This document shows, piece after piece, positions 10,655-47,295 of a stretch of DNA of 64,000 nt (position 1 is its first letter; the number at the start of each line of letters is the position of its first letter). The notes below the pieces were generated by a model, which searched no databases, had not been told where the DNA came from, and saw only the letters and a program-made list of their open reading frames with translations. Position numbers and translations under genes: made by a program. The stretch lies in the NCBI RefSeq assembly GCF_022846255.1, contig NZ_AP025682.1; one strand, given 5' to 3'. Source of the DNA: Escherichia coli. GTDB taxonomy: Bacteria > Pseudomonadota > Gammaproteobacteria > Enterobacterales > Enterobacteriaceae.

Positions 10655-10750
10655 TGTTGTGATTTTGCACGCAGCACGTACTGTCAGAGAAATCAGTGCT
10701 CTGACAGTACGCAAGATCATCTCATACTCTTACGATCTGCAATATTATCC

Positions 10751-21136: not shown

Positions 21137-21227
21137 GCGACTCCTCCGGCAAAACGGAAGTTTATCACTTGTGCGTTATAACGGACAAATGCTACGGTAC
21201 CTGTACGTTATAACGCACGAGGTGACT

Positions 21228-22442: not shown

Positions 22443-23651
22443 TCAGGCTGTCGCCTGAATCATTTCGGTGGGTTCCTGCTTCAACGGGCGGCCTGACTGC
22501 ACCATCTCTCCACAGGCAAGAACGGCGTGCCCCGCCGCTAAAATGTTACGAGCGCCATTTACATCGGCGTTCGCTGTATATCCACATACCTGGCATCTGA
22601 ATTTACTTTGTGACAGGCGGTTCTCTTTCGCTGTATGACCACAGTACGCGCAACGCTGGCTTGTATACGCTGGCGGAACAGCAAGCACCTGACCGCCACG
22701 CCAGAGCTGCTTGTACTCAAGCTGGCGGCGCATTTCATACCAGCCCTGATCCAGTATCGAACGGTTTAAACCTGATTTTGCCCGGACATTGCGCCCCGGC
22801 TGGCTGACCGTACCCGCTGCTGACTTTGACATGTTGCTGACCTTCAAATCCTCAATGACTATCATTGCGTGGTTTTTGCTGACGGCCGTTGTGACTTTGT
22901 GAAGGTAGTCCCTGCGGATATTTGCGATACAGGAATGCAGTCGCTGTATTTTGCGTTTCTGCTTCTGCCAGTTGTTGCTGAATTTGACCTTGCGGCTTAA
23001 CTGTCGCTGAAGTCTCGCCAGCGTCTTCTGGTTTTTCTGAAAACTGTTTACAGGCTCAAAGACTGTGCCATCTGACAGCGTGGCGAGTTTAGCCACGCCA
23101 GCATCCAGCCCGACCATTGATGCTGAAGGGTGAGCCGGAGTGGATACTTCACTTTCTGTCTGAATACTGATGTACCACTTACCGCAGGACTGGCTGACAG
23201 TGACATTTTTCACAACACCCGTGACCTGACGGCTATTCCGGTAGCGCATCCAGCCCAGTTTCGGCAGAAAAATACGGCTGTTTTCCTGATCGAGCTTAAC
23301 GCCCTGCGGGTAGCGGAATGCATCATTCTGTCCCCGCTTTTTGAATCGGGGAAAAGCAGCCCGCTTCCGGAAGAAGTTTTTGTAAGCCCGCTCAAGGTCT
23401 TTCAGTGACTGTTGCAATGGCTGTGAGGGAGAATCTTTAAGCCATTGCGTTTCAGTGGCGTTTTTCCACTCAACCAGCCAGGAAGCCATTTTCCCGTAAG
23501 GGATGTATTTATTACCGGCCTCATGATTCTCATTCTGAAGCGCCAGAGCACGATTGAAAACGAAACGACATGCGCCTGCGAAGCGCCTCATTTCACACTC
23601 CTGTTGACCACCTGGTCTTAACTGGAATTTAAATGCCTGTAATCGTTTCAC
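22443..23651 (-). CDS. insQ: TnpB (IS605 OrfB-family RuvC-like RNA-guided nuclease), 402 aa, apparently intact
   Basis: ORF track; N-terminal KFQLRP...NRALAL, C-terminal zinc-finger CAYCGH...CQVCG and RuvC-like segments. Confidence 0.9.
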
Positions 23652-23658
23652 AGGTCAA

Positions 23659-24164
23659 ATGATACTTTGGTCTGTGAAAAAAGAAACCGATATCCGGCGT
23701 GGAAGGCATTGTGTTTTCCTGATGCATGTTCAGCTGGTCTTTGTCCCAAATACCGACGCCAGATTTTTGACCATGACGCGACAGAAAAACTACGCACTTA
23801 CTATTCAAATGTATGTGCTGATTTTGAAGCTGAACTGGTTGAAATGGATGGCGAACCAGATCACGTCCATTTGTTAATTAACTATCCTCCCAAACTGGCG
23901 ATATCCAGTCTGGTAAACAGCCTCAAAGGCGTATCGGGTAGGTGACTGCGACGAGATCGACCAGATATTGCAGTCAGGTATTACTACAAAGGCGTTTTGT
24001 GGAGTCCTGGCTATTTTGCCAGTAGCTGCGGAGGTGCGCCAATATCCGTCATCCGCCAATACATTGAACAACAGCAAACACCTGGTCAGGTGGAAAACCG
24101 CGCCTTATATCCCCGCCCTGAAGGACGGGGTTTTACGGCGCACCGGATAAAAAGCGCCATCTAA
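23659..24164 (+). pseudogene. IS200/IS605 Y1 (HUH) transposase TnpA, disrupted
   Basis: Motifs split across frames: ...HVQLVFVP then KYRRQIF...DHVHLL...LKGVSGR, in-frame TGA at 23943-23945, then YYKGVLWSPGYFASSCGGAPISVIRQYIEQQ. Confidence 0.7.
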
Positions 24165-24181
24165 CGATGGCGCGTCTGGAA

Positions 24182-24850
24182 CTACTTTTTGTTAACGTCA
24201 AACATGGTGGCATCGGTCGCCATGTCATCAATAACTTGTTTAATATTTTCGAAAGCCATTGGCGTACTTTCGTTATTCAGGTCTTTACCTTCGCCCTGAC
24301 GAACGACTTTGATAACCGGTTTATTAGTCGCTGCATCAATCAGCTCACCTTCAAAATACAAGCGAGTATCCATGGTTCGGTGGCCTGTAGCCATTTGCGT
24401 CCCCGCTACCACTAATGCAACAGGAACCACTTCATAGAATTGCAGCCCTTCTTTACTGGTATCTACACCGGTAATGGCCCCACGGAAAATCAGACTACGC
24501 GGCCCAGCGGTGGTAACCAGTGGTTTACGCTGCGCTATCGCTTCTTTCATTTCGGTGTTGGTATAGTTCAAAATTTTATCCAGAACTTTCTGCCCTACCT
24601 GGGTAGAAGGTTTCGGTACCGGATAATAAGTGATTGGGTTCCAGACGATGCTGTCATATTTGCTTTGATCAAAACTCGGGTCTACCCAACGTAAAACAGG
24701 TTTACCTGTTGCCGAGGTTGTTTCTTTTAAATCAGAGTAATTGTTTAAAAAACCAGAATATTTATCTGGCTGGGTGATTTTAGAGGCACAACCAGACAGA
24801 GCCAACAAGCCGCATAAAGCTGCAACTTTCGCAAATGATGTGGTACGCAT
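24182..24850 (-). CDS. ydcL: lipoprotein YdcL (222 aa)
   Basis: ORF track; lipobox LALSGC. Confidence 0.9.
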   Translation of the reverse strand: MRTTSFAKVAALCGLLALSGCASKITQPDKYSGFLNNYSDLKETTSATGKPVLRWVDPSFDQSKYDSIVWNPITYYPVPKPSTQVGQKVLDKILNYTNTEMKEAIAQRKPLVTTAGPRSLIFRGAITGVDTSKEGLQFYEVVPVALVVAGTQMATGHRTMDTRLYFEGELIDAATNKPVIKVVRQGEGKDLNNESTPMAFENIKQVIDDMATDATMFDVNKK

Positions 24851-25152
24851 GAATAGTTTCCTGAGATGATTATATTACTTTCTAAGTTATAGCAAAAAGC
24901 GCCGCTTCGTGTTGTGGCAAAAAAAGTGTTGGTGAAAATAAATTTTTTAGCCCCTTTTCAGACGACATAGTCAATGCCGAAAAAGGGGCTAAGTCAATCA
25001 TCAGTAGTTAAATTTCAGTAAGTTAAGCGGCTAAAAAACTTCGACTACTGTGATTAATTTCACATCCCTTCGATAAAAAATATGCTTACCGAAAAGAAGA
25101 ACAGTAAACCATCTCAGCGTGGGGAATTTTCACGCGCTTTGTTCTTACCGGA

Positions 25153-25746
25153 TCATTTTTTACGTGCCAGCATCGTGGCGAAACGCAGTTTAATACGATT
25201 ACCGTTGGCGTCGGTGCGGTGCAGTTCGCCGACGTCTTCATTGTATTTCACCATCTCCCAGCCTTCGTAATATCGACGTAATTCCCCCTCTTTGAAGGCA
25301 AACGGGAAGCCGACGGTACATGGATAATCAGCGGTATCCATCGCCGCCACAATCAGGTTGTAACCACCAGGTTTCGTGCAACGTTGCATATTGGCAATCA
25401 GCCCTGGGATGGTTTTAGCCTCAAGGAACATCAGCACCACAGTCGAAAGAATAAAATCGTATTTCCCATCAAATGTGAGGTTATTCAGATCAACGACCCG
25501 GGTGTGTAAATTATCCAGATTTTCAATGGATTTAATGCGCTCGACGTTGGCGATACTCATGGCATTTTTATCCCATGCGTCAACATCATAACCATTGGCT
25601 GCCAGGTAGAGACTGTTACGACCATTGCCACAGCCCAGATCCAGCGTTTTACCCGGTTTAACCACTTTCACCGCTTCCAGTACTTCAGAGTGTGTGCGAG
25701 TTAATTCATATTTATCAGTAAAATAGTTTTCGTCACGAATGATCAT
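25153..25746 (-). CDS. tehB: tellurite methyltransferase TehB (197 aa)
   Basis: ORF track; SAM-methyltransferase motif [11 protein letters not shown]. Confidence 0.93.
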
Positions 25747-26735
25747 TCTTTGTCCTCTGCTTTCATTAAAACGGCGCGCTCGGTTCTGATTAACAATTTT
25801 CCCTGCATCAGAAGCGCAAAAGTACGGATGAGCAGTATTGCAATAATAAAATTGGTAAAGATAAACAGCGGCACCGCCAGCGTATGGAAAAATCCATTAT
25901 CGCTGCTACTCCCCAGATGCAAACCGGTGGTTGCCAGTGCAGATACACCGAACGAGAAACTCCAGAATGAAGCATTAAATGGCTGGGAGAGATACCATGG
26001 CATCAGACGTAGCATAAACAGCAGTTGCAGCAGTCCATAACCGAAAAGCATTTTCGCCAGCGTGTCACCCTCGCCGCCGTTGACGCTCAGCCAGGCACTA
26101 CAGGCCACCAGCGCAGGAGCGAGCTGAATGCCGAGTGATGTCCGCAGTGCCGTGGGTAATTCTCCCGAACTGCGCAGACGCTGCAAGATCACCGGTTCCA
26201 GGCTTAGCCATGAGAAAACGCCTGCGCCTAAAAACACCAGACCGGCGTCGGTGTAGCCCAACGCACCACAGGCCATTGCGCTGATAAAGTTGTTGGCAAC
26301 TGTCGGCAGATACAGTCCAGGCGTGGTAGCTTCTTCAGGGTGAGATCCGCGCCATAATCCCGCAGTTTGCCAGGCGGCATAAGCCAACTGAACCACGACA
26401 CCAAAACTGAACAGGCACACCGCCAGTGGGCGAAACCACGGAACAAAACCAATCGCCACCAGCATCGTCGTTGCCGGAAACAAACTCACAAAACTGCTCA
26501 GCACTGGATGGCGCACTTCTGCCAGCACGCTATGCGGAAAGCGTATGAGTCGGGTAATAAATGCGCCAGTCAATAATCCCCAGATGATCATCGCCAGAAT
26601 CACCAGCCCATCACCCAACCAGTGGCTGACCTGCCAAACCTGGCTGGCATAGCGCCAGGCAAATCCCATCCCTATCGTCCCCAACACAATACCAAAGTAG
26701 CCTGCCGGCAAATTGAGCACTTTATCGCTCTGCAT
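25743..26735 (-). CDS. tehA: tellurite-resistance / dicarboxylate-exporter family membrane protein TehA (330 aa)
   Basis: ORF track 25743..26843; start placed at [19 protein letters not shown] (ATG 26735-26733); overlaps tehB start. Confidence 0.9.
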
Positions 26736-26858
26736 CTTCTTACTCATTTTGTTTAATTTATAAAGTATATTTGAAATGCATTTTATGGAATTTTCTCGAG
26801 CATAGCCAGAGCCGCAGAATTTGCTACGGTTATAGTAAGTCACCTGTGGGAAAACGCT

Positions 26859-46818: not shown

Positions 46819-47124
46819 TTGAAAATACAGGCTACCCGGCGAAGGCTGCTCACCGACCGAGGTTTCACCTTTTTCACTAACGAACGCTACAGCAGCAGGC
46901 GCTACGCGCTGATAAAATTTGCCGATAAAGGTTTGGTGGTCGCGCAATATATTCGTAACCGTCGTCTCGATTTTTGTGCAGATGCGATTCGCCATGCCGC
47001 AGATGATGAAAAACTGGCAGGCATTGGCTTTCATTGGGGATTTTCCGACCAGAGTCATTTTTCAACGGTATTTAAACAACGCTTTGGGATGACGCCAGGC
47101 GAGAATCGGCGTAAATTCCGCTAA
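46819..47124 (+). pseudogene. feaR: AraC-family regulator, C-terminal HTH fragment (likely feaR remnant)
   Basis: 101-codon ORF ending in an AraC-type second HTH (GFHWGFSDQSHFSTVFKQRFGMTPGENRRKF); no N-terminal domain; adjacent to ydbL as feaR is in K-12. Confidence 0.5.
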
Positions 47125-47161
47125 CTAATTCGCGTTGCATGTACAGCAACGCGAATTAGTT
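47123..47161. repeat. perfect 16-bp inverted repeat (hairpin) spanning the feaR-fragment stop
   Basis: AACTAATTCGCGTTGC-ATGTACA-GCAACGCGAATTAGTT; no flanking U-tract on either strand. Confidence 0.6.
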
Positions 47162-47295
47162 AAAACAGATATTTGACTATGCATTTTTCAGGGCAAAAGA
47201 CAATTTGGCAGGAATTTTTGAATAATCATCTTATTTCCGGAAAATAGATTAATCGCCTTCTCCTGTAGCGTTATCCCGATATTGCGGTTTTGCTA

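Follow-up and report, generated by a model that had tools for sequence, protein, structure and literature searches.

The spacer between tehB and ydcL of Escherichia coli carries a stable stem-loop that is probably the protective 3' stem-loop of the tehAB transcript, with the RNA end arising from termination further downstream or from cleavage, followed by trimming. The whole stem-loop occupies positions 24947 to 24992 on the minus strand of the 64-kb stretch of E. coli DNA that was analyzed (the window), as delimited by folding and by the inverted repeat that underlies it. A 3' end at this hairpin is already contained, uncommented, in a public table, and the structure is an ordinary one of a known kind.

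Structure of the hairpin and its genomic context

tehB (25153 to 25746), which closes the tehAB operon and from which the transcripts ending at the hairpin presumably come, is encoded on the minus strand together with tehA (25743 to 26843) and ydcL (24182 to 24850). The latter gene specifies a DUF3313 lipoprotein and has its own promoters. The tehB-ydcL spacer measures 302 nt, with 160 nt between the tehB stop codon and the start of the hairpin, and 96 nt between the end of the hairpin and the ydcL ATG. RefSeq annotates nothing in this spacer in strain 7/2, RR1 or MG1655.

A first-pass annotation of the sequence had placed an inverted repeat at the 3' side of tehB and the 5' side of ydcL. The repeat is indeed present at that place, and the gene context, with both genes on the minus strand, is confirmed. 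The coordinates given, 24948 to 24991, were one base off: an inverted-repeat finder identifies perfect 12-nt arms, TTAGCCCCTTTT at 24947 to 24958 and AAAAGGGGCTAA at 24981 to 24992, with 22 nt in between. The arms of 12 and 13 nt that had been written out are not exactly complementary, and the supposed open loop of 19 nt holds a 6-bp inner stem, a 3-nt bulge and a 5-nt apical loop.

Folded as minus-strand RNA, which is sense for tehB and ydcL, the segment forms an outer stem of 13 bp and an inner one of 6 bp. The outer stem consists of the 5' arm UUAGCCCCUUUUU (24992 to 24980) and the 3' arm GAAAAGGGGCUAA (24959 to 24947), and its innermost pair is U-G. The inner stem pairs CGGCAU (24979 to 24974) with AUGUCG (24968 to 24963) and is capped by the apical loop UGACU (24973 to 24969), while the bulge, UCU, lies at 24962 to 24960 and interrupts a stem top that is rich in A-U pairs. 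The fold energy is -26.2 kcal/mol (z = -4.8), a value that none of 200 shuffled sequences attained. The plus strand folds more weakly (-22.3 kcal/mol, z = -4.0). An identical K-12 structure was folded by the authors of the TRS study, at -25.4 kcal/mol (PMC10687069).

Four distinct perfect inverted repeats with arms of at least 12 nt and a spacer of at most 40 nt occur in the 64-kb window, against a chance expectation of 0.17 hits per 64 kb on average in first-order Markov simulations, in which overlapping registers were counted separately. The remaining three lie at 10677 to 10711, 21171 to 21218 and 47122 to 47162, the last with 17-nt arms. No second copy of the arm pattern was found in the window, even when three mismatches were allowed. 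The hairpin region is present in 5,406 of 5,426 complete E. coli genomes (at least 95% identity), and megablast and blastn searches place it at a median of one site per genome among these 5,406, showing that it is single-copy. Five of the approximately 5,430 matches to the tehB-ydcL spacer fall on records labelled as plasmid. The 401 bases around the hairpin are 100% identical to strains such as 7/2 and APEC O1:K1:H7, and 97.8% identical to K-12. A search of positions 24000 to 26000 against Rfam 15 at a permissive threshold gave best overlapping hits of 17 to 20 bits, compared with family thresholds of 47 to 70.

We considered and rejected several other origins and uses of the sequence. Derivation from a dispersed repeat (REP/BIME, ERIC or MITE) is incompatible with the single-copy status of the hairpin in the window and in E. 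coli genomes. Derivation from a mobile element was rejected because the hairpin is single-copy and lies outside the IS200/IS605-family element downstream of ydcL. This element (22443 to 24164), located just 3' of the ydcL terminator, contains a tnpB/insQ-like ORF of 402 codons and broken tnpA fragments; the insertion site differs in content between strains, K-12 having an IS609 remnant there and strain 7/2 having IS200C. A 39-codon ORF that runs across the hairpin (24882 to 25001, minus strand) is not coding, as 1-nt indels in O157, in E. albertii and in one further locus of our sample (L005) break its frame.

RNA 3' ends at the foot of the stem

In MG1655, the hairpin lies on the plus strand at 1502315 to 1502360, the latter coordinate being the last paired base. 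K-12 coordinates were transferred to the window via L083 and a gap-free alignment of the segment, and the sequence columns of the TRS tables were calibrated on the thrL attenuator. The first-pass annotation had suggested that transcript ends be looked for at the hairpin, and reproducible sense-strand 3' ends are found in K-12, 1 to 5 nt past the stem. TRS reports a plus-strand cluster of 3' termini at 1502359 to 1502368, in which three analyses find 1502361, 1502363 and 1502365 to be the dominant termini; a signal of 0.81 to 0.94 indicates low read-through, and adjusted p-values reach down to 1e-28 (Bar et al., 2023, PMC10687069). In the window, the TRS and RNAtag-seq termini correspond to 24942 to 24946, within an A-run. 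The dominant end in the LB RNAtag-seq sheet is located 1 nt past the last paired base.

These positions, at +1, +3 and +5, differ from those of the canonical terminators of thrL and ydcL (the latter at 24154 to 24173 according to a terminator scan), which in the same TRS table have their ends 6 to 8 nt into U-runs. The 3' flank of the hairpin, AAAAAAUUUAUUUUCACC (24929 to 24946), has no U-tract directly after the stem; the tails that follow the stem are AAAAAAUUUAUUUU on the minus strand and AGUCAAUC on the plus strand, and the terminator scan did not flag the hairpin on either strand. Intrinsic terminators combine a stable, co-oriented stem-loop downstream of a gene with a U-rich tract of 7 to 8 nt, and their 3' ends lie about 6 to 9 nt past the stem in that tract. 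The tehB-ydcL hairpin provides the stem-loop, but neither the tract nor ends at that distance. What it does present is a stable stem-loop without U-tract and a 3' end immediately downstream, the combination expected of a protective stem-loop.

TRS labels the end at the hairpin as premature and assigns it to the 5' UTR of ydcL, a label that is given to ends less than 100 nt away from a start codon when the preceding stop codon is more than 100 nt distant (PMC10687069). The label is therefore purely positional. The curated Term-seq list and the list of Rho regions of Adams et al. (2021) both contain no entry for tehB, ydcL or the coordinates 15020xx to 15025xx, a locus that is weakly expressed. 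The files of Ettwiller (2016) that were searched likewise contain no match for the locus.

Start sites and promoters of ydcL

SMRT-Cappable-seq (Yan et al., 2018, PMC6131387), a method applied to cells in glucose or rich medium and with RNAs below 1 kb removed, detected a tehAB unit starting at 1500535, but no unit comprising tehAB and ydcL. Supplementary Data 2 of the same study lists two start sites for ydcL, at 1502347 and 1502428 (PMC6131387). The distal one (1502347, within 1 nt) corresponds to 24959 to 24960 on the minus strand of the window, where the bulge meets the 3' arm. A putative -10 element, GACTAT (24967 to 24972), is situated in the apical region of the hairpin and ends 7 nt before this start site. 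Separated from it by 19 nt, a putative -35 element, TTGACT (24992 to 24997), adjoins the 5' arm and is invariant in Escherichia. The sequence around GACTAT, CATTGACTAT, is invariant in nine Escherichia sequences. A simple promoter scan did not call this distal promoter.

The main ydcL start site, 1502428 in K-12 and 24879 in the window, is located 81 nt 3' of the distal one and 68 nt past the hairpin. Its promoter (24879 to 24894, minus strand) has an extended -10 element, TGcTATAAC (24894 to 24886), which ends 7 nt before the start. A GCTAT core is found at -41 to -47 from ydcL in most of the 80 ydcL loci that we compared. A SELEX peak of the RpoS holoenzyme has been reported in the tehB-ydcL spacer (PMC5493296), which is consistent with the main ydcL promoter. 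Further motifs recur across genera in the ydcL upstream regions (L003 to L082; 24886 to 24946 in the window), namely TTTTnGnCACAACA and either AATTTGTGC or AAATTGTGC. The latter motif directly follows the hairpin and takes the form AAATTTATTTTCACC in E. coli. The recurring motifs may serve the ydcL promoter as UP elements or as sites for a regulator.

The start sites bear directly on the suggestion of the first-pass annotation that the hairpin might be a leader structure of ydcL. mRNA from the distal start contains only the 3' arm, and mRNA from the main start contains no part of the hairpin. As the starts lie inside and after the hairpin, ydcL mRNAs never carry it as a whole, and the leader reading does not hold up against the available data. 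RNA that begins at the inner start site (24960 to 24835) is, moreover, unstructured (z = +1.6 relative to shuffled sequence), and SMRT-Cappable-seq found no start site within the spacer upstream of the hairpin. Nor does the structure travel with ydcL: where ydcL has other upstream genes, unrelated canonical terminators usually occupy the slot.

Variation within Escherichia

Apart from E. coli, the hairpin is also kept in E. albertii and in the cryptic clades, and across these and the lineages of E. coli, 91% of cells remain paired. Two stem pairs show a graded series, from U-A through U-G to C-G in one case and from G-C through G-U to A-U in the other. Several single stem substitutions within Escherichia are compatible with G-U pairing. 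As G-U is a mismatch in DNA, these changes point to sense-strand RNA as the relevant molecule. Within Escherichia, the covariation does not reach significance (between 53 and 205 of 500 shuffles do equally well), and uncompensated mismatches occur in EPEC and O157. The search for compensatory changes proposed in the first-pass annotation yields too few of them in Escherichia for a verdict, and a strong signal only in the positionally equivalent hairpin of Citrobacter and Salmonella.

Some E. coli strains have tandem duplications in the 5' half of the hairpin, either of 21 nt (unit CTTTTTCGGCATTGACTATGT) or as a 36-nt compound. Carriers are strains 200164 (L086) and 22AR0750 (L087), and the hits H17 and H76. 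The duplications copy the promoter-like element TTGACTAT and enlarge the loop. Neither the loop nor the upstream ATTGACT varies in Escherichia, and both are better conserved than the stem, suggesting that part of the conservation is due to a function at the DNA level, as a promoter.

Hairpins at the same position in other Enterobacteriaceae

We compared 80 ydcL loci, using one genome per species. The upstream neighbour of ydcL is tehB in Escherichia, Citrobacter, Salmonella arizonae and diarizonae, Kluyvera, Klebsiella pneumoniae and others, while in most of the sampled Enterobacter, Leclercia, Lelliottia, Raoultella and remaining Klebsiella species another ORF, about 530 codons long, takes this place. 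A strong hairpin ending at about -95 to -110 from the ydcL ATG is present in most of the 80 loci. Canonical terminator-like sites, with a GC stem and a U-run, were found at 23 of the 35 loci with another upstream gene, compared with 6 of the 45 that have tehB upstream.

The hairpin of Citrobacter and Salmonella is unlike the Escherichia one in sequence. It has a U-rich loop and an A-rich tail without U-tract, and its covariation is strong: 10 of 12 pairs are changed on both sides, which none of 500 shuffles reaches, and slid controls score far lower. A covariance model trained on this hairpin did not hit the Escherichia hairpin, and the equivalence of the two is positional only. We also considered an upstream pairing that would turn the U-rich loop of Citrobacter into a terminator tail. 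It was rejected, because the pairing partner is the coding end of tehB and L024 does not retain it. In several genera, the hairpins that follow tehB lack a U-tract despite unrelated sequences (L008 to L027 and L068 to L078, comprising Citrobacter, Salmonella and Kluyvera), which suggests that the mode of tehAB 3'-end formation is itself conserved.

The remainder of the spacer

The spacer measures about 300 nt in Escherichia and about 165 nt in Citrobacter and Salmonella. Relative to the latter two, Escherichia has some 130 extra bases between the tehB stop codon and the hairpin (24993 to 25152), although they are missing from Escherichia sp. MOD1-EC7003 (L003). The full Escherichia spacer folds as three stem-loops (z = -4.84), while RNAalifold, run on the whole spacer, gave no net covariation support (+1.26). 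A perfect CRP-type core, TGTGA-N6-TCACA (TGTGATTAATTTCACA, 25049 to 25064), of which 0.05 are expected per window, lies 57 nt upstream of the 5' end of the hairpin. E. albertii and the cryptic clades retain its half-sites, and the 6-nt spacer between them varies. With respect to the mapped ydcL starts, the site is centered at about -95.5 and -176.5, positions that fit no standard class of CRP-dependent promoter. A literature search on CRP control of ydcL retrieved nothing relevant.

Discussion

Our data suggest a model in which the hairpin, on RNA of the tehAB sense, defines and protects the steady-state 3' end of transcripts that come from upstream. These transcripts are most likely tehAB mRNA, which would then have a 3' UTR of about 210 nt. 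RNA polymerase would read through the hairpin. Further downstream, in an unstructured, A/U-rich stretch with mildly more C than G, transcription would stop or the RNA would be cut, probably with the participation of Rho, and the 3'-to-5' exonucleases PNPase and RNase II would trim the RNA back to the stem. We favor this route of read-through and trimming because a U-tract is lacking and the mapped ends lie at the foot of the stem. A candidate Rho-loading region, judged by composition, extends from 24951 to 24861 on the minus strand and is mostly 3' of the hairpin. The C/G ratio is 1.6 to 1.8 in 78-nt windows at and just after the hairpin (24951 to 24861), which is a modest bias. The same DNA would also hold a weak distal ydcL promoter, with the putative -35 element abutting the 5' arm and the putative -10 element in the loop.

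The idea of a protective stem-loop reportedly originated with Peters et al. Dar and Sorek (2018, PMC6061677) described Rho-dependent transcripts that end right after stable stem-loops without U-rich tails, with PNPase and RNase II trimming the ends back from diffuse downstream termination sites, and with a mild enrichment of C over G after the structure. The tehB-ydcL hairpin resembles this class in being a stable, U-less stem-loop after a weakly expressed operon, with a 3' end at its foot; the unstructured RNA downstream, with mildly more C than G, may be a further likeness. It deviates in that the start site of the next gene lies inside the stem-loop, which is unusual, and in that the site is absent from the Rho-region list of Adams et al. 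(2021). With canonical intrinsic terminators, it shares the placement 3' of an operon's final gene, the stability of the stem and a discrete 3' end with low read-through, but not the tail (AAAAAAUUUAUUUU), the architecture of the long, bulged stem with its A-U-rich top, or the location of the ends. The proposal of the first-pass annotation that the hairpin is the tehAB terminator is therefore borne out as regards the outcome, judging by the 3' ends, the low read-through and the terminators in the same slot of other genera, but not as regards a terminator of canonical intrinsic type.

U-less intercistronic hairpins could block 3' exonucleases and thereby protect the upstream message. REP/BIME stabilizers, for example between malE and malF, are likewise U-less hairpins between co-oriented genes, but the hairpin studied here is single-copy, and tehAB and ydcL have been mapped as separate transcription units. 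Similarity to 5'-UTR attenuators is limited to the placement of the 3' end in the ydcL 5' UTR by the 100-nt rule of TRS; there is no mapped start in the spacer upstream of the hairpin, and the ydcL 5' UTR is unstructured.

Several other explanations have to be weighed against a protective stem-loop. The hairpin could be a non-canonical intrinsic terminator that acts directly, releasing the RNA without Rho, with the A-run and UUUAUUUU providing a weak hybrid and the ends being nibbled back by a few nucleotides. The stability of the hairpin, which equals that of real terminators, the low read-through, and the canonical terminators in the same slot of other genera would all fit, and U-poor hairpins may be inefficient intrinsic terminators backed by Rho (PMC6061677). 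We nevertheless regard this explanation as unlikely, since neither strand has a U-rich tract within 0 to 2 nt of the stem, the ends fall at +1 to +5 rather than at the +6 to +8 seen for thrL and ydcL, and the top of the stem is A-U rich and interrupted by a bulge. The RNA ends could also belong to a transcript born within the spacer, either a prematurely terminated ydcL leader, i.e., an attenuator, or a non-coding RNA of about 70 to 210 nt, from an unmapped promoter that could adjoin the CRP-type site. The perfection of this site and the preservation of its half-sites beyond E. coli speak for such a transcript, as do the unusual degree of structure of the Escherichia spacer and the 5'-UTR label of TRS, and the size cut and the media of SMRT-Cappable-seq would have made it escape detection. 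However, the label is positional, SMRT-Cappable-seq shows no start in the spacer upstream of the hairpin, and, on inspection of the sequence, no convincing -10 element is spaced from the CRP-type site as in class I or class II promoters, the candidates being unconserved. Such an RNA would also be without the U-tail of Hfq-type small RNAs, an Rfam match or net covariation support from RNAalifold. On balance, an origin within the spacer seems distinctly unlikely.

A function at the DNA level, in which the palindrome would belong to the distal ydcL promoter or serve some unknown dimeric regulator as its operator, with the RNA hairpin incidental, is in our judgment quite improbable. It would account for the start site within the hairpin, for the invariance of the CATTGACTAT loop and ATTGACT in Escherichia while stem positions vary, and for the RpoS-holoenzyme peak in the spacer. 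It does not sit well with 3' ends at the foot of the stem, which demonstrate in vivo that the RNA folds in this way and that the fold matters, with several substitutions that are tolerated as G-U pairs in RNA and would be mismatches in DNA, or with the unrelated hairpins that fill the same slot in other genera. Moreover, we know of no usual operator geometry that matches 12-nt arms with centers 34 bp apart. That the palindrome is due to chance or is neutral, for example a functionless relic of template switching, is extremely improbable, even though the Escherichia covariation falls short of significance and some strains have mismatches or duplications. Such repeats are rare in simulated sequence, this one is kept in almost all of the complete E. 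coli genomes as well as in E. albertii and the cryptic clades, and RNA ends map to it.

With little confidence, we also raise the possibility that the Escherichia-specific spacer, of about 300 nt, does more than serve as a 3' UTR. From a cAMP-CRP promoter adjoining the perfect CRP-type site, a short structured RNA ending at the hairpin might be made, and/or the hairpin and the distal ydcL promoter embedded in it might act as a switch that allows either read-through from upstream or firing of the promoter, but not both. If this were true, transcription of a tellurite-resistance gene, or the carbon status of the cell, would be coupled to expression of the YdcL lipoprotein.

Returning to the protective stem-loop that we favor, its identification matters little beyond annotation. 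It would give the tehAB transcript of E. coli a 3' boundary, and it would correct the positional label of a premature end in the ydcL 5' UTR in a published catalogue of 3' ends. The overlap between a 3'-end hairpin and the start site of the next gene represents a dual use of compact intergenic DNA that is tidy, but unsurprising. Dar and Sorek have suggested that terminators can switch type in evolution by U content alone (PMC6061677). The tehB-ydcL spacer would add one clear comparative example to this idea, as the same slot is filled by a U-tailed terminator or by a U-less protective stem-loop, depending on the genus.
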